From Haliotis rufescens (taxonomy: Eukaryota), in assembly GCF_023055435.1 (NCBI RefSeq), contig NW_025964112.1, positions 64,046,001-64,110,000 on the forward strand: a DNA stretch of 64,000 nt, given 5' to 3'. The translations under genes were made by a program, and so were the position numbers. Below, piece after piece: positions 18,301 to 37,200 of the stretch. The notes under the pieces are model-generated. The model was not told the DNA's origin. It was given only the letters and a program-made list of their open reading frames with translations, and searched no databases. Position 1 is the first letter of the stretch. Each line of letters opens with the position of its first letter.

Positions 18301-19998
18301 GCGTGACGTGCTGACGGTGTGACGTGCTGATGGTGTGACGTGCTGATGGTGTGATGTGCTGATGGTGTGACGTGCTGACGGTGTGACGTGTTGCTGGTAT
18401 GATGTGCTGATGGCGTGACGTACTGATGGTATGATGTGTCATAAGCCAGCAATGAGCAGTAAATGTATCGCGGCATGTAAAGTCATCGATACAGGGCCAG
18501 ACAAACTGGAGTTGGATAGCATGAGAAGCAGACAATCAGGCCAGATTGATATCGATTATCAGCCCAAACTCACACTGAACGGCCTTTGTGACCACCAAAT
18601 CCTCAGTTTGGCCAGCAAGGGAAACTTGGGACCCCTTGACCTGGGATTCCCACAGTAATTTGTATATAAGAGGCAGGTGAAATATGTTGAACCGGTACCT
18701 CAGCGATTCCAGCCTTGGCAAAAGCCAAAAAAGGGGGGACAACTCCTGTTTTGTTCTCCTCCGGGGTGAGTATTTTCTCCGTCTTCGGTGAAGCGTATAT
18801 CGTGTTTCCAGCCTTGTTTATCAAAGACACTATGTTGGGGTTCTCAGTGTCAGGGTAGGACAGTAGTACGTCGTATTCCCGAGTTTGGACCTCGTCGAGG
18901 CCAATATCCCGCCAGTACTTGTGTATCCTGCTCCCCAACACCTTGTTCCTGTCTCTCCCGGCTATGTGGGGCAGCTCTGACAGCCATCTGTCAACACAAT
19001 ACATACCACAGTTTGCTTCTTCATAACTTTATTTTTAATTTTTAATTTTTACGCCGCGCTGTAAGTAATCGAGTCTGGACCTGACAAACCATGGGTTGAT
19101 ATTATGAGCAACGTCCCAGGATGACTACGTCATCAACCACGTCATCAAATCTGACCGCCTGATCTAATTTAGTCGCCTCTTTCGACAAGCATGGGTTACG
19201 GTGGAATAATTCTGGGTCCCCATCGGGGCATCTTGGAAGACAAAACAGAAGACAGCAGTAGCGCCAAGTGTCATCAGACAAATACCCCCCGGCCCCCACA
19301 AATTAATCTGGCTGTTACTTTAAGACCAACTTGATGACAGATATCTATCTAATCTGCCTGTCCGTATACCAGAGTAGCTATTGAGATATCAAAACAATAC
19401 CATGGAACTGGGATTCGGAATTTTGTATTTCTCTGTAAGGTGCACACCAATATGAACAGAGTCAAAATCAAACGTGTTGCCATGTAAACGGAAAAAATAA
19501 CTTTTTTTAAAAATGATGAATATGTGTACCAAATACGATTATATTTGCGCCCCACGTACCACATTGCTGAGTCCAGAACTCTCTCTAAACAGAACCAGAA
19601 TCCCGCGTACCAAATTGGTGAGAAGCCTCGGTCATCTCGACCTTGATCTTTACACATTCAGGTTGAAAATCTAAATTCCACCAAGCGCATGCAAATCAAC
19701 ATACATAGGATTACACGTAATCAATCATTTTTTAACTATTTTCGTGGATACTCTCTTACCTTAAATTCTCTTCAATTTTCGTTTTGTTCACACCGCTTAG
19801 AATATTTTGTAAAATATCATCTTTGAACGGGTCTGTATTCGCCTGGACAGTTGGTGGCTGTGAAGCATCGCCGCCGTCATCGTCACACAGGACGTACATG
19901 CCGATGACGATGCCGACAGCGACACCGACACAGAGGGTGAAGAAACATATGACTGAGAAGCAGCATCTGCTGGTGGGTTCCTCCCGCTGACCGGCCAT
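6386..19998 (-). CDS. M28B metallopeptidase, NAALADase/glutamate carboxypeptidase II-like type-II membrane protein, 752 aa; exons 19760-19998, 18699-18987, 17685-17807, 17305-17488, 16993-17089, 16516-16602, 14638-14723, 14369-14488, 13689-13774, 13457-13520, 13012-13079, 12797-12894, 11345-11435, 10401-10490, 9259-9424, 8120-8204, 7321-7413, 6386-6578
   Basis: N-terminal TM anchor; PA-domain motifs [28 protein letters not shown]; zinc/catalytic motifs [38 protein letters not shown]; dimerisation-domain motifs [18 protein letters not shown]. All 17 introns are GT-AG and phase-compatible, total 2259 nt. AATAAA on the minus strand at 6351-6356. Confidence 0.95.
6685..7022 (+). mobile_element. 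Family C copy with an internal duplication bracketing the exon-17 fragment
   Basis: TTGGTTGATGCATGTCATCGATC...CTGGATTG occurs twice; (AACC)n tail. Confidence 0.8.
6774..6850 (-). pseudogene. Duplicated fragment of NAALADase exon 17 plus its splice donor, lying in intron 17
   Basis: Aligns to 7306-7386 with 4 coding-region substitutions, 1 intronic substitution and a 4-nt deletion. Confidence 0.9.
7476..7990. repeat. 33-bp minisatellite TGAACACACTTACGACTGTCGTAACATTCCCTG
   Basis: Tandem copies, degenerating to the right. Confidence 0.85.
8217..8338 (-). mobile_element. SINE family B, 5'-truncated
   Basis: Reverse complement aligns to 4739-4909. Confidence 0.8.
10752..11020 (-). mobile_element. 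Family C, full length
   Basis: 13-bp TSD CGTGGGT(A/T)GTGGT; 5' end GACCCGTGAA. Confidence 0.9.
11659..11892 (-). mobile_element. Family C copy
   Basis: Aligns to 16153-16427. Confidence 0.85.
12037..12185 (-). mobile_element. SINE family B copy
   Basis: Reverse complement aligns to family B. Confidence 0.75.
14815..14980 (+). mobile_element. 3' fragment of a CR1/L2-group LINE ORF2
   Basis: Translation YKC...[17 protein letters not shown]...[13 protein letters not shown] is typical of the C-terminal end of these LINEs. Confidence 0.7.
16153..16427 (+). mobile_element. Family C, full length
   Basis: 11-bp TSD GGGTACAGTAG; 5' end ACCCGCGAAGATCC; (AAAC)n tail. Confidence 0.9.
17855..18440. 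repeat. 16-bp minisatellite TGGYGTGACGTGCTGA
   Basis: Tandem copies in NAALADase intron 2. Confidence 0.9.
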
Positions 19999-21762: not shown

Positions 21763-23271
21763 TACTGAACCAAATTAAAAACTTCACAATCCTAAAATTT
21801 TAACATTTTGACCAGTTATCATTGTGGGCTCTTATTGTGTATTTAAACAGTAATGGCCACATATTGTCTTCAGATAACACCCGTTTTTGTGCAGGTGAAT
21901 CGATCAAAATCATGTGCACAACACTATAGTGGCAAAGGTGCTTTTTCACGTGCAACTGGTCACGTTGCCATAATACCGCACGTGTTTTCAGCCATACTTG
22001 TTAGCAGTCATTAACAAAAAAAGAAAAACACAAGAAAACAAAAGTCTTTACGGCCATTTGTCATGCCACGCCTTTCAAATGTGCAACGTGAACGTGCCAT
22101 TGGCATGTTGCAGACGGGAACGTCCGTAGCTGAAGTCGTAAGGACGATGGGTTGTAGTCGACGAAGTGTTTATGATTTACAGACGCGTCTACAGCAAACG
22201 GGTACCACCGCTGATCGCCCTCGGCCAGGTCGACCACGTGTGACGTCACATGCAGAGGATCGTAAGAGTGTCTTACGTCACCTCCGTAACCGATTTTTGA
22301 CGGCTACATCAACCAGAAATGAACTGTTTAGGGGTAGACTGAGTGCGCAAACTGTTCGAAACCGTCTTAAAACTGCTCGCCTTCAAGCACGACGGCCATA
22401 CTGCTGGCCGATTCTGACTCAATTACACAGACGTCAACGTCAATTGTGGGCACAGCGACACTTACGATGGACTCAGAGGAATTGGAATCAAGTCGTCTTC
22501 AGTGATGAATCCCGATTTAATCTTCGATTTGCTGATGGTAGGGCGAGGGTGTGGAGGCGCCGTCATGAACGTTACGCCCAGCGTTGTGTACAGGAAGTTG
22601 ACAGATTTCGAGGCGGAAGTGTCATGGTGTGGGGTGCTTTCTGTGGCAATGCACGTTCCAGGCTTCTTGTCATCCGTGGCAACCTCAACGCTACTGCTTA
22701 CCGCGACCAGGTAATGGCACCAGAACTTCTGCCTTTTATGGCAGCACATGGACCCGGTTTGATCATCAAACACGACAATGCCAGACCCCGCACAGCAATT
22801 TTGACAAGGAATTTCCTTCAGAAAGCGGGAGTCAACGTCATGGACTGGCCGTCAAGGTCTCCCGGGATGCTCTTGGCAGAAGGCTGCGCACTCTCCAGAA
22901 CCAACCACAGAATTTGCAAGATCTTGGCACCATTTTGCAGCAAAAATGGTGTCGTCTTCCCAATCATGTATTCACAAGCATCACAAGGTCCATGCGGAGG
23001 GGTTGTGTGGCAGTTGTCAACGCACATGGTGGCCATACAGGCTATTGAACTTGTGTGCCATCAGATTCTCGTGCTTGGGACTTATAATTTCAACTGTTGA
23101 TGTTATTACCGAATACCGTAGGTGCTTGGAACAAATTATGGTTACCACCGTTAATTAAAATCCTTCTTTGGACATTAATGATTAAAAATTACCTTCTCTG
23201 ATACATTTGTCCGTTGTATATCATATATGGGATTACTTTTAAAAATGTAAAGTTTTAAATTTGGCTCAGTA
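21763..23271 (+). mobile_element. Tc1/mariner DNA transposon, full length, transposase disabled
   Basis: Terminal inverted repeats TACTGAACCAAATTAAAAACTT / AAGTTTTAAATTTGGCTCAGTA with flanking TA at both ends; internal transposase ORF. Confidence 0.93.
22063..23048 (+). pseudogene. Tc1-family transposase pseudogene
   Basis: HTH region, RPGRP, VFSDES, VMVWG, HDNA and WPSRSP are present. The expected DLNPIE..W segment with the catalytic Glu is deleted near 22865 with a frameshift; the C-terminus continues in the frame ending at 23048. Confidence 0.9.
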
Positions 23272-23633
23272 TATGTTCCAGATGTGTCCAGCCCTGGTGT
23301 CCTAAATGCGTCCTGTTCCTTGCAGGTTAAGCTTACACCTCCAGCATCTGCCATAGTGTGAGATATCGCCACAATCAGCACGTCTATGTTGGGGTCCATG
23401 GTTCTCCAGATGTGACTCGGGCCAACAACAAACATTATCATGGCGAAGAGGAATTACTCTATGTGGGTCAACATATGTGCTGATTGTCATGCTGGTATAA
23501 AAGGCTTCAAATGCCACCTACTTTCATTACCATCTGTTCTCCAAGACATTAAGTCCCACGCCGACCTGAGGTACGTTATATGTCTAGTGTCATTCTTCAT
23601 CATTGTTTGACAACCAACATCTACAAATCTGTG

Positions 23634-23863
23634 AGTGAGTGAGAGAAACTGCTTTAACACTGTTGTAATGTTCATGCAATATGACGGCGGTCTGTAAATA
23701 ATCGAGTCTGGACAATTCAGTGATTGACATCTTGAGCATTGATCTACGCAACTGGGATACGATGGCATGCATCAACCAAGTCAGCGAGCCTGACCACCCG
23801 ATCCCCTTAATCGCCTCTTACAACAATTATGGGTTGCTGAATTCTAAACCAGATCTTCACGGG
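23634..23863 (-). mobile_element. Family C copy
   Basis: Aligns to family C; (ACTC)n tail. Confidence 0.8.
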
Positions 23864-23897
23864 GGGGGATGCCCAATTCGTTCGCATCTTCATGCAG

Positions 23898-24210
23898 CGG
23901 GGATGCAGGGGACAGATTCTACCCCGGGTCCCCACGGGAAACACTGATGTGAACAGTGTTGCAGTTATAGCACGTCAGATTGATGTGGGTTGCTGGGGAC
24001 AGATTCTACCCCGGGTCCCCACGGGGAACATTATTGCAGTTGTAGCACGTCAGATTCATGTGGGATGCTGGGGACAGATTCTACCCCGGGTCCCCACGGG
24101 GAACATTATTGCAGTTGTAGCACGTCAGATTGATGAGGGTTGCTGGGGACAGATTCTACCCCGGGTCCTCACGGGGAACAGTATTGCAGTTATAGCACGT
24201 CAGATTGATA
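23898..24210 (-). repeat. 75-bp tandem repeat (4 copies) containing a variant of the family C 5' structured motif
   Basis: Minus-strand unit contains CCCGTGGGGACCCGGGGTAGAATCTGTCCCCAGCAACCC. Confidence 0.9.
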
Positions 24211-24523
24211 TTGGAGGAAATGCGGGTTTTGGCGTTATGGTGAACTGTGTTACTGTCAATACAGTGTAATCTTATAAAAGTCATTTCGCCGAACTTACCA
24301 ATCAGCTGTGAGAATTCCTAAAATATGAACAAGTTCCTATTCCGGATCGAACAGCCCTTCAGGGTAATGCTTGACGCTATAGTCCTAACTTGCAGTACAT
24401 ATAATACAGAAACGCTATTTTAAGTGTTTAAACATTATCAATTGTGTTGATATTACGTGTCACAAACAGAATGGTTCATCATGTTTATATCAATCGCATA
24501 TATCTGCAGTTGACTTTCAGGCC

Positions 24524-27500
24524 ATGATGCTGGTATATTTGACCTTCACCTTGGCGCTGTTGTCGTCTGCTGTGGCGATAAATGGTCCATGTGCCCCAAA
24601 TGAGAATCTACTGACGTTCCTGAAGGCAATCCACAACATCCCGTCCTACAGCACCATGTCTCCCGACAACAAGGTGCTCCTGACCGAGATGGTGTCGGAG
24701 GTGCAGATCTGTCAACTCACAGCCTACGTCAACACCATTGGCTTCAGCAAAGTCCTAGGTTTGCTGGACAGTAAGTAACGACTGGACCGCTGGGATGCCA
24801 TTCATGTAATGGTGGTACAAACCAAACACAATTCCCCGCATGTCATTCATGTGCAGGTGGTACAAACCAAACACAATTCCCCGCATGTCATTCATGTAAT
24901 GGTGGTACAAACCAAACACAATTCCCCGCATGTCATTCATGTAATGGTGGTACAAACCAAACACGATTCCCCGCATGTCATTCATGTGCAGGTGGTACAA
25001 ACCAAACACAATTCCCCGCATGTCATTCATGTAATGGTGGTACAAACCAAACACGATTCCCCGCATGCCATTCATGTAATGGTGGTACAAACCAAACACA
25101 ATTCCCCGCATGTCATTCATGTAATGGTGGTACAAACCAAACACGATTCCCCGCATGTCATTCATGTGCGGGTGGTACAAACCAAACACAATTCCCCGCA
25201 TGTCATTCATGTAATGGTGGTACAAACCAAACACGATTCCCCGCATGTCATTCATGTGCAGGTGGTACATACCAAACACAATTCCCCGCATGTCATTCAT
25301 GTGCGGGTGGTACATACCAAACACAATTCCCCGCATGTCATTCATGTGCAGGTGGTACATACCAAACACAATTCCCCGCATGTCATTCATGTGCGGGTGG
25401 TACAAACCAAACACAATTCCCCGCATGTCATTCATGTGCGGGTGGTACAAACCAAACACAATTCCCCGCATGTCATTCATGTGCTGGTGGTACAAACCAA
25501 ACACGATTCCCCGCATGCCATTCGTGTGCTGGTGGTACATACCAAACACAATTCCCCGCATGTCATTCATGTGCGGGTGGTACAAACCAAACACGATTCC
25601 CCGCATGCCATTCGTGTGCTGGTGGTACATACCAAACACGATTCCCCGCATGCCATTCGTGTGCTGGTGGTACAAACCAAACACACTTCCCCGCATGTCA
25701 TTCATGTGCTGGTGGTACAAACCAAACACAATTCCCCGCATGTCATTCATGTGCGGGTGGTACATACCAAACACAATTCCCCGCATGTCATTCATGTGCA
25801 GGTGGTACAAACCAAACACGATTCCCCGCATGCCATTCATGTGCTGGTACGATTGATAGTTTGTCAATCCTGTAACCAGTGCGACAACCTCCATGTCTAT
25901 CGTGTACTGAACAGTTAGTTATTATCTCGACAACCACCATGTCTATCGTGTACTGAACAGTAAGTTATAATCTCGACAACCACCATGTCTATCGTGTACT
26001 GGACAGTAAGTTATAATCTCGACAACCACCATGTCTATCGTGTACTGAACAGTGAGTTATAATCTCGACAACCACCATGTCTATCGTGTACTGAACATGA
26101 GTTATAATCTCGACAACCACCATGACTATCGTGTACTGAACAGCAAGTTATAATCTCGACAACCACCATGTCTATCGTGTACTGAACAGTGAGTTATAAC
26201 CTCGACAACCACCATGTCTATCGTGTACTGAACAGGTAGTTATAATCTCGACAACCACCATGTCTATCGTGTACTGAACAGCAAGTTATAATCTCAACAA
26301 CCACCATGTCTATCGTGTACTGAACAGGTAGTTATAATCTCGACAACCACCATGTCTATCGTGTACTGAACAGTAAGTTATAACCTCGACAACCACCATG
26401 TCTATCGTGTACTGAACAGTGAGTTATAATCTCGACAACCACCATGTCTATCGTGTACTGAACAGGTAGTTATAATCTCGACAACCACCATGTCTATCGT
26501 GTATTGAACAGTGAGTTATAACCTCGACAACCACCATGTCTATCGTGTACTGTACAGCAAGTTATAACCTCGACAACCACCATGTCTATCGTGTACTGAA
26601 CAGCAAGTTATAACCTCGACAACCACCATGTCTATCGTGTACTGAACAGTGAGTTATAACCTCGACAACCACCATGTCTATTGTGTACTGAACAGCAAGT
26701 TATAACCTCGACAACCACCATGTCTATCGTGTACTGAACAGTAAGTTATAATCTCGACAACCACCATGTCTATCGTGTACTGAACAGTAAGTTATTATCT
26801 CGACAACCACCATGTCTATCGTGTACTGAACAGCAAGTTATAACCTCGACAACCACCATGCCTATCGTGTACTGAACAGTGAGTTATAATCTCGACAACC
26901 ACCATGTCTATCGTGTACTGAACAGGTAGTTATAATCTCGACAACCACCATGTCTATCGTGTATTGAACAGTGAGTTATAACCTCGACAACCACCATGTC
27001 TATCGTGTACTGTACAGCAAGTTATAACCTCGACAACCACCATGTCTATCGTGTACTGAACAGCAAGTTATAATCTCGACAACCACCATGTCTATCGTGT
27101 ACTGAACAGTGAGTTATAACCTCGACAACCACCATGTCTATTGTGTACTGAACAGCAAGTTATAACCTCGACAACCACCATGTCTATCGTGTACTGAACA
27201 GCAAGTTATAACCTCGACAACCACCATGTCTATCGTGTACTGAACAGGTAGTTATAATCTCGACAACCACCATGTCTATCGTGTACTGAACAGTAAGTTA
27301 TTATCTCGACAACCACCATGTCTATCGTGTACTGAACAGCAAGTTATAATCTCGACAACCACCATGTCTATCGTGTACTGAACAGGTAGTTATAACCTCG
27401 ACAACCACCATGTCTATCGTGTACTGAACAGTAAGTTATAACCTCGACAACCACCATGTCTATCGTGTACTGAGCAGTGAGTTATAACCTCGACAACCAC

Positions 27501-34271: not shown

Positions 34272-37200
34272 ATGATCCCGTACGTGGTTCTGGCGCTACT
34301 GCTGTCAACGGCTGCTGCTTCTGGGCCCTGCGCCCCGAACGAGGACCTCCTCAAACTGCTGAAAGGCATCCATGCAGCCCCATCGTACAACACAATGTCG
34401 GCTGCCAACAAGGCGCTTATCCCTGAGCTGATTGGCGCATCTGAATCCTGTCAGCTGACGGCGTATATCTACACCGTGGGCTTCCATAAAGTCCTGGATT
34501 TGTTGGACAGTAAGTAATGGTATATTTGACTTCCATACTGTTCCGAATGACGCGGGGGCGGTCGGGTAGCCTCGTGGTTAAAGCGTTCGCTCGTCACGCC
34601 GAAGACCCGGGTTCGATTCCCGACATGGGTACAATGTGTGAAGCCCATTTCTGGTGTCCCCCGCCGTGATGTTGCTGGAACATTGCTACAAAACGGCGTA
34701 AAACCATACTCACTCACTCACTCCGAATGGTGTGAGTATTTGTTGACATGGCCCTTGTGGTCTGACATCCAGTCCCGGACTCCATTGACGCATGGTTTAT
34801 ATATTTTTGTTCATGGGGAGTCCATTCTTGGCGCTGTTGACTTTGTGTACTGAATGGCGTATGACGAGCGAGCATCTGGAAATGGCTGCCGATCAGAGCT
34901 GGATACGTTCGCTATTGGAACATTAATAGATGTGTTTATCACGGCTCTAGCACTTGACAACAACTTATCAAACATTATGAGATCTATTTCAGAGCACATT
35001 TAATGAAATTGTTTGTTTGTTATTTAACGCCACCCTCAGGTATACATGACGACGGTCTGTAAATAATCGATCGAGTCTGTAGCAGACAATCCAGTGATTG
35101 AAATCATGATCATCGATCCACCGAATTGGGATACGGTGACATGCATCAACCAAGTCAGCGAGCCTGACAACCCGATCTCGTTAGTCGCCTCTTACGACAA
35201 GCATAGTAACGGCAAGCCTGGGTTGCTGATGACAAGTATACCACAGTAATACACTACCACTGTGTAACAAAAATGAGCTGAATCGCCCAGTTCCAAATTT
35301 AAATGAAATATCTAATCTACAGTTGGATTATCTCAAATTCAAAACACAGGAGGTTTATCTTCTAGCTGACTGTGTGTACTGATAGTGATACCTATCGTTA
35401 TTAACATGAGATCAGACCAAGTAATAGATTATAATACGGAATGGCGTTTGTTTCGTCTGTGTAATTGTTATTTATTATTGTCATTCACTCCGTAGATATG
35501 TTGCCGGAGTAGAAATGTATCTACACCAGTTAAAACCCGATATTTCACCGTGATGCATGCTCGACTGTGACTGTTCCTCTCCGCAGGTGTGACGCCAGGT
35601 GAAGCTCACTTCTTGAACAACTACCTGTCAGCGGTAAGTACAGGTGAAACTCACTTCTTGAACACCTACCTGTCAGCGGTAAGTACAGGTGAAGCTCACT
35701 TCTTGAACACCTACCTGTCAGCAGTAAGTACAGGTGAAATTCACTTTTTGAGCACCTGCCTGTTAGCGGTAAGTACAGGTGAAACTCACTTCTTGAACAC
35801 CTACCTGTCAGCGGTAAGTACAGGTGAAACTCACTTCTTGAACACCTACCTGTCAGCAGTAAGTACAGGTGAAACTCACTTCTTGAAATCTACCTGTCAG
35901 CGGTAAGTACAGGTGAAACTCACTTCTTGAACACCTACCTGTCAGCGGTAAGTACAGGTGAAACTCACTTCTTGAACACCTTCCTGTCAGCGGTAAGTAC
36001 AGGTGAAACTCACTTCTTGAACACCTACCTGTCAGCGGTAAGTACAGGTGAAACTCACTTCTTGAACACCTACCTGTCAGCGGTAAGTACAGGTGAAACT
36101 CACTTCTTGAGCACCTACCTGTCAGCGGTAAGTACAGGTGAAACTCACTTCTTGAGCACCTACCTGTCAGCGGTAAGTACAGGTGAAACTCACTTCTTGA
36201 ACACCTACCTGTCAGCGGTAAGTACAGGTGAAACTCACTTCTTGAATACCTACCTGTCAGCGGTAAGTACAGGGGAAACTCACTTCTTGAGCACCTACCT
36301 GTCAGCGGCGGTAAGTACAGGGGAAACTCACTTCTTGAGCACCTACCTGTCAGCGGTAAGTACAGGTGAAACTCACTTCTTGAATACCTACCTGTCAGCG
36401 GTAAGTACAGGTGAAGCTCACTTCTTTAACACCTACCTGTCAGCGGTAAGTACAGGTGAAACTCACTTCTTGAGCACCTACCTGTCAGCGGTAAGTACAG
36501 GTGAAACTCACTTCTTGAGCACCTACCTGTCAGCGGTAAGTACAGGTGAAACTCACTTCTTGAGCACCTACCTGTCAGCGGTAAGTACAGGTGAAACTCA
36601 CTTCTTGAACACCTACCTGTCAGCGGTAAGTACAGGTGAAAACTCACTTCTTGAATACCTACCTGTCAGCGGTAAGTACAGGTGAAACTCACTTCTTGAG
36701 CACCTACATGTCAGCGGTAAGTACAGGTGAAACTCACTTCTTGAGCACCTACCTGTCAGCGGTAAGTACAGGTGAAACTCACTTCTTGAACCCCTACCTG
36801 TCAGCGGTAAGTACAGGTGAAGCTCACTTCTTTAACACCTACCTGTCAGCGGTAAGTACAGGTGAAACTCACTTCTTGAGCACCTACCTGTCAGCGGTAA
36901 GTACAGGTGAAACTTACTTCTTGAACACCTACCTGTCAGCGGTAAGTACAGGTGAAACTCACTTCTTGAGCACCTACCTGTCAGCAGTAAGTACAGGTGA
37001 AACTCACTTCTTGAACACCTACCTGCCAGCGGTAAGTACAGGTGAAGCTCACTTCTTGAACATCTACCTGTCAGCGGTAAGTACAGGTGAAACTCACTTC
37101 TTGAACATCTACCCGACAGATGGTACCCAGCTGATTTAAGAAGGCTCATGTTTCTTGCGAAATCTCGATATGTAGTCACGTGATGACATTGTCAGACGCA

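Follow-up and report, generated by a model that had tools for sequence, protein, structure and literature searches.

The tandem array at positions 23,898-24,210 of the window (the whole 64,000-nucleotide stretch of Haliotis rufescens DNA analysed here) is in itself ordinary and of little weight; the point is the motif that it exposes, namely, the 5' head of an interspersed element, on which there lies a conserved fold. The head sequence is a known one, and the fold itself is undescribed: neither a description of it nor the sequence words of the head were found in the openly searchable literature, outside which lie subscription papers, Repbase reports and the supplements of bioRxiv preprints. 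On balance, we lean towards a two-part account as the best overall explanation, in which the array is dead and the head would act as a double-pseudoknot block to 5'-to-3' RNA decay. A 70-nt fold common to retroelement 5' ends and to the 3' UTRs of RNA viruses is directly assayable, and the motif gives a testable answer to the question of how thousands of tRNA-less SINEs, and the LINEs that go with them, obtain exact 5' ends.

The predicted fold, in which we place high confidence, comprises stem S1 (CCCG/CGGG), a single-nucleotide loop L1 (U), the 7-bp stem S2, a loop L3 that ends in AGAAUA, stem P3 and a second pseudoknot. Overall, the data support a model that comprises an H-type pseudoknot at the 5' end, one more stem, another pseudoknot and a hairpin (P4), the second pseudoknot being predicted to pair the loop of P3 with the strand that follows GUCG-UAARAGG-CGAC-UAA. 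Homologous heads were taken from this genome (465 matches), from metagenomes (at least 120 loci) and from viral and genome contigs. Covariation was assessed on 19 heads, aligned blind to structure and controlled with 500 shuffles in which relatedness was ignored: across S1, S2, P3 and P4, 88.8% of the cells are paired versus 71.2% after shuffling, and there are 60 double-change cells versus 20.7 in the shuffles (0 of 500). Covariation of the helices extends over animal retroelements and RNA-virus 3' UTRs. Changes on both sides are seen for all seven pairs of S2 and for three of the four pairs of P3; S1 is 86% paired, its covariation amounting to two double-change cells. P4 is nearly invariant and was selected for, and its conservation is partly circular, as all of the homologs from outside were chosen by the P4 hairpin.

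The substitutions from which a stem had been proposed in the preliminary description, GAAGAT/GTCTTC to GGGGAC/GTCCCC (two A-U pairs turned into G-C, and a U-G pair into C-G), together with a U-A at the same U-G pair in the copy at 61.4 kb, are all present in the sequence, and the covariation of this stem, S2, is real. Two further elements of that proposal do not survive the larger comparison. The outer T, drawn there as part of a stem pair, is probably the 1-nt loop L1 in the 19-head alignment, and the pairing of a loop GGGGT with AACCC is found at only 35% in three of its four pairs, scoring 2.65 versus 2.51 with partners swapped (1775 of 10000 swaps); this pseudoknot is replaced by CCCG/CGGG and the second pseudoknot.

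Exchanging partner strands among 26 family representatives (10000 swaps, relatedness ignored) gave 3.54 versus 2.31 for P3 and 3.73 versus 2.81 Watson-Crick pairs for the second pseudoknot, with 0 of 10000 swaps in either case; S1 and S2 were mis-parsed in about six of the 26 rows, and the S2 result of the whole comparison is circular. The second pseudoknot is illustrated by pairs such as CCUGG/CCAGG versus CCAGG/CCUGG, and it is weak or absent in L092 and in two viral contigs, L215 and L220. L3 is as short as 8 nt and reaches about 70 nt in metagenome families. In compact families, S2 closes a loop of 12 nt plus the closing pair, and this loop is much longer in some metagenome families. In L130, L088 and related metagenome loci, L3 carries low-complexity inserts of 17 to about 70 nt, and AGAAUA stays beside S2. 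The pseudoknots do not appear in a plain MFE fold.

Within the window, TRF (period 75, 3.5 copies, 94% match, at 23951-24209 of the 64 kb) and a unit-by-unit reading both confirm that there is a 75-bp tandem repeat with a family C-type head, which lies, as the preliminary description had it, 5' of a family C copy on the same strand. On the minus strand, the array consists of three 75-bp units and a longer fourth with a 12-nt insert (Table 1). In each 75-bp unit, 33 nt of old flank precede 42 nt from the start of the 5' head of a LINE of the I group (Nimb-like). Beyond its decayed hairpin, unit 4 goes on to a second head and the family C body, i.e. a double-headed LP-SINE. The S1 and S2 pairs are mostly intact in units 2-4; in unit 1, a single G>A change disrupts S2, leaving five of its seven pairs. 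The head of unit 4 retains all of the pairs of the first pseudoknot, although its P4 has decayed. That the repeat lacks the downstream hairpin, as had been stated, holds for units 1-3, which end within the P3 loop, but not for unit 4, where a decayed hairpin is kept; the covariance model scores are 22.6, 26.7 and 28.1 bits for units 1, 2 and 3, respectively, versus 43.7 bits for unit 4, and the second head, in the family C copy, scores 28.3 bits.

Table 1. Locations of the array, its parts and related features (coordinates are those of the window unless a locus is named)
Feature	Location	Strand	Details
Repeat unit 1	24135..24209	-	33 nt flank and 42 nt LINE head (head 24176-24135); from TRF and unit-by-unit comparison
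Repeat unit 2	24060..24134	-	Flank and truncated head; S1 4/4, S2 6/7; without the 3' strand of P3 and without the hairpin
Repeat unit 3	23985..24059	-	Flank and truncated head
Unit 4, flank part	23941..23984	-	Carries the 12-nt local insert
Unit 4, head	23869..23940	-	GGGGAC-type LINE head, full-length but decayed; first head of the double-headed SINE
Family C (LP-SINE-like) copy	23631..23865	-	Second head, decayed, then body and (CACT)n tail
Older flank	24176..24225	-	Resembles the 3' tail of a different dispersed repeat; L210 is 84% alike over 50 nt (E 1e-9)
Double-headed SINE arrangement, as at unit 4 head	L005, L006, L011, L019, L047, L049, L212, L213		
Head-only tandem arrays at SINE 5' ends	L265, L283-L286, L323-L342, L041		Units of 44-58 bp in as many as 40 copies
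HDV-like module	L051:1442-1499 and relatives		58 nt directly before the head; the family starts at its G1

The older flank is the source of the 33-nt non-head part of the units and of a CC(A/C)CAT microhomology at the duplication joint: its CCACAT, a near-match to CCCCAT in the head, is located where the units break. Very probably, a double-headed SINE landed in the tail of an older repeat, and slippage at the short microhomology then copied flank and head in tandem. A 24-mer from the flank, searched across the genome, is found in the four units and at one further site with two mismatches, itself part of what appears to be the other repeat's tail. The restriction of the flank to this locus and the truncation of units 1-3 make a dead minisatellite of SINE/LINE origin likely, and not a ribozyme multimer. 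Very probably, the array arose when 33 nt of flank, together with the initial 42 nt of a LINE-derived head, were locally duplicated in tandem, and it has no function; it likely inherited its compensatory changes from that head.

Hammerhead satellites and retrozymes consist of tandem units with a structured RNA motif, and the preliminary description had offered a multimer of a functional RNA motif as one reading of the array. That the array is a functional satellite RNA, cut to monomers in the manner of the hammerhead satellites, is highly improbable: the largely intact S1 and S2 pairs of units 2-4 would suit it, but they are set against a single locus, truncated units, the broken stem of unit 1 and the lack of a hammerhead core, CTGA.GA being absent from both strands of 23800-24260 and GAAA from the head strand. 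Moreover, no Rfam model matches the window at its gathering score. The other reading offered there, an amplified fragment of a sister subfamily, proved apt, as the GGGGAC head belongs to a LINE 5' UTR and to a subfamily of double-headed SINEs.

The surroundings of the array are rich in repeats. Other minisatellites are numerous in the window (35 TRF rows), and unrelated ones, with units of 15-46 bp in up to 164 copies, are densely packed between 17854 and 46280. On the plus strand, 22015-23100 holds a 361-codon ORF for a Tc1/mariner-type transposase with Pfam matches to HTH and DDE_3 (the DDE match being below cut-off), and 24524-24775 and 34272-34514 form a paralogous exon pair for a small, signal-peptide-like protein that has no Pfam match; the array lies ~320 bp upstream of the first of these exons, on the opposite strand. 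Additionally, another head variant with a different body, probably a separate subfamily, is seen on the minus strand at 19160-19229 (43.7 bits).

The GGGGAC variant is not unique to this locus, and its stem covaries in the larger alignment. The start of the dispersed head, GGGGACCCGGGGTAGAAT, which lies within the last 42 nt of the units, has 60 exact matches in the genome, versus none for the reversed control. When 38 loci were classified (the window's own being counted once), 22 led into a LINE 5' UTR, 11 into a family C body or second head and five into neither. The ORFs downstream of the head carry CCHC motifs, APE and RT. In intact relatives, ORF2 is 1230-1235 aa long with Pfam matches to APE, RT and RNase H, which points to an I-group LINE as the source of the head; in ORF1, CCHC motifs are visible and there is no Pfam match. 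'Nimb-like' is a provisional label for this LINE, given on its architecture and the common head.

The double-headed layout was recognized by script in six of the 38 loci, to which L212 and L213 may be added; a search with a loose pattern for further copies of this layout mainly returned ordinary family C heads (two of 25 loci were double-headed). Family C itself is abundant, with 5743 genome matches to its exact 39-nt head, and is a non-coding element of ~255 bp with script-detected target duplications in 23 of 60 copies and a tail that is 83-86% like LINE tails over 36-45 nt. No target duplication was found around the window's own decayed copy. Most families begin 1-2 nt before the first paired base of the head; for family C, there is a G at position -2 in 49 of 60 copies and an A at position -1 in 51 of 60, position -3 being mixed.

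Copies of the head also occur in viruses. With a covariance model built from 15 heads of non-viral origin, six RNA-virus contigs (L214, L215, L217, L220, L221 and L222) reach 45-73.5 bits, versus 15-17 bits for four chance pattern matches. In all six, the fold is in the 3' UTR, just after the last long ORF, with 25-119 nt between the stop codon and AGAAT. Five of them carry coding sequence for an RdRp or for a capsid of the tetravirus/nodavirus type; the ORF of L214, in which the motif is in tandem, has no Pfam match. As L215 and L221 are near-identical, we count five independent virus contigs. Additionally, a 212-kb DNA-virus record has the fold between genes (L216:2981-3054, 62.9 bits). Relaxing the hairpin pattern added only chance matches among the viral contigs, and phage records gave no match. 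There are seven matches in prokaryote genomes (L223-L229), for which contamination by host DNA is likely, given that L228 runs into a LINE 5' UTR and a zinc-knuckle ORF; L224 and L229 have a common downstream sequence.

The copies in RNA viruses require a role at the level of RNA. We rank a block to decay first on account of the viral 3' UTR position and of element starts 1-2 nt before S1: such a block would trim read-through transcripts to the exact start of the element and, in viruses, would protect the 3' part of the viral RNA. That the fold stalls Xrn1-type nucleases is accordingly our leading proposal for the head, albeit one that we hold at rather less than even odds; against it, the length of L3 varies widely and the 5' GA could be the capped start of a Pol II transcript. 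More tentative still is the fuller proposition that the head represents a new class of xrRNA (exoribonuclease-resistant RNA) common to animal LINEs and SINEs, to RNA viruses and to one large DNA virus. It would define the 5' ends of retroelements with neither promoter nor ribozyme, be coupled with an HDV-like ribozyme in certain LINEs of the I group and, through a nuclease-proof core of ~49 nt, seed the arrays of heads.

The same viral copies, located in the 3' UTRs of virus contigs of tombus-like and tetra-like type, would also suit a cap-independent translation or ribosome-recruiting element, serving viruses as a 3' enhancer, uncapped LINE RNA as a means of translation and SINEs as access to the ribosomes that make the LINE RT. 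In its favour, the head tolerates long L3 inserts, and in one LINE family it stands directly behind an HDV-like fold, which would leave the RNA uncapped. By itself, however, it leaves the element starts 1-2 nt before S1 unexplained, and ORF1 lies some 600 nt downstream; we consider it unlikely, if worth keeping in view. Rather less probable is that the head is mainly an internal promoter, with RT or RNP binding as the second role of the fold. The fixed GA start fits a capped start, and section 10 of the LP-SINE report, in the part available, proposes a promoter and cites Pr77 of L1Tc/ingi as both promoter and ribozyme (PMC4758252). A promoter acting at the DNA level cannot, however, explain the copies in RNA-virus 3' UTRs, nor conservation at the level of pairing, nor the variable spacing from the start to AGAAT.

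The HDV-like fold belongs to an I-group LINE family that is young and intact (about 6.2 kb, with a 1230-aa ORF2) and in which the 59 nt upstream of the head are common to 28 of 30 loci drawn from the genome matches to the head. A descriptor of the canonical fold (G1-U wobble, L3 UCCUCGU, J4/2 C) finds it in 22 of 213 loci and in none of the shuffled sequences, and the module aligns to RF02682 with 27.5 bits (E 0.0024), below the gathering score of 44. The module has 1090 genome matches; in all 30 of the loci retrieved with it, the head is still present behind it, and the DNA upstream of the module is unrelated. In five of six long copies, the target duplication adjoins G1, so that the 5' end of the element is at the predicted cleavage site. 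We infer that the module cleaves there. With the head kept in 30 of 30 loci and duplications at G1, the head would be neither needed for cutting the 5' end in the young family nor cut off from it. The module offers an internal control, in that ribozyme-set and head-set 5' ends can be compared within one genome. In a separate locus (L058:1441-2005), the whole LINE 5' region of ~565 nt, module included, is tandemly duplicated. An antisense small RNA of 31 nt with a 5' U, piRNA-like, lies over the pseudoknot of the young LINE (L051:1505-1535); its 127 reads have one start in run X20 and are possibly copies of one molecule. Three small-RNA runs gave no reads on the window array, two of the three being nearly without reads on either stretch; among the sequencing runs listed as containing the sequence, none is registered as RNA.

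Arrays of the head without its body are common across the genome, where family C head-to-head joints number 532. The first 100 of these joints represent 27 loci, of which 18 break right after GCTTGTC, the foot of the P4 hairpin, two break one base earlier and seven elsewhere or unclearly. The 24 loci inspected have 1-40 counted units, mainly before a SINE body and in unrelated flanks; by eye, the target duplication encloses both array and SINE in seven of the 24. The array units have GCTTGTC and the last units mostly GCTTGCC, which favours one double-headed master with later expansion. The GCTTGTC site is also the break point of L041, an array of a sister family, and there may, therefore, be a preferred break site.

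These breaks bear on a further reading, that the head is an undescribed self-cleaving ribozyme from whose cleavage fragment the arrays were copied. The recurrent break, L041 included, would agree with it, as would a double pseudoknot with a C-UAA motif, which we take to resemble HDV J4/2. The window array breaks elsewhere, however, and the GCTTGTC and GCTTGCC units point instead to the one double-headed master; moreover, 30 of 30 loci still have the head behind the HDV-like fold, and double-headed SINEs keep it too. Nor does the head have an HDV P3/L3 module: the descriptor has no match in the window, and Rfam ribozyme models match the upstream module only. We thus regard a ribozyme as very unlikely. 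Specific assignments for the head were rejected: the HDV fold (P1-P2-P3-L3-P1.1-P4-J4/2), for which L3-like words are present and both descriptor and Rfam are negative, and the hammerhead, twister, pistol and hairpin ribozymes, whose signature words are absent and for which Rfam is likewise negative.

Satellites derived from SINEs are already known, including SINE arrays in bivalves, and, as far as the accessible parts of these reports go, the window array resembles them in that a portion of an interspersed element is repeated head-to-tail (Vassetzky 2023, PMC10702118; PMC11481361); it differs in that the 5' head is the part amplified and that the unit also includes flank. With hammerhead satellites and retrozymes, which are named in PMC6765202, it has in common tandem units with a structured RNA motif. 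Unlike the hammerhead satellites, with their dispersed arrays of one unit, it lacks a hammerhead core, carries a truncated motif and is confined to a single locus, the flank part occurring here alone.

Mollusc LP ('LINE promoter') SINEs have a head of ~70 bp in common with Nimb-17_LMi, I-3_DR and RTE-9_CPB, and a promoter role was proposed for it (Matetovici 2016, PMC4758252, as available in part). By eye, the scallop 'Nimb-17 homology' block in Supplementary Figure S2 of that work matches the head described here in its layout and in its P4 hairpin, and this head is common to LINE 5' UTRs in this genome. Hdi_LP, at 255 bp, is about the length of family C; the ~70-nt head has no tRNA head ahead of it. 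The portion of that report available describes no RNA fold, virus copies, upstream HDV-like fold or head arrays.

Viral xrRNAs, in so far as the accessible text of a 2021 review describes them, have a ring of 15-16 nt, and those of cellular RNAs were still to be found (PMC8374639). Measured against that text, the head differs in a secondary structure unlike the described classes, in apparently having no fixed 15-16-nt ring and in occurring mainly in cellular genomes; it is alike in placing a pseudoknot on the first nucleotides, at the start of viral 3' UTRs and in tandem in one virus. HDV-like ribozymes have been described at the 5' ends of LINEs of the R1, R2, R4, RTE and Ingi groups as well as the LOA group in the available parts of PMC5786205 and PMC6765202, and the young family is similar in starting exactly at G1 of an HDV-like fold. 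The module is a separate 58-nt unit before the head, absent from the window array, and its I-group, Nimb-like host lies outside the six clades listed in those parts; it would thus extend the range of clades that have 5' ribozymes by an I-group LINE.
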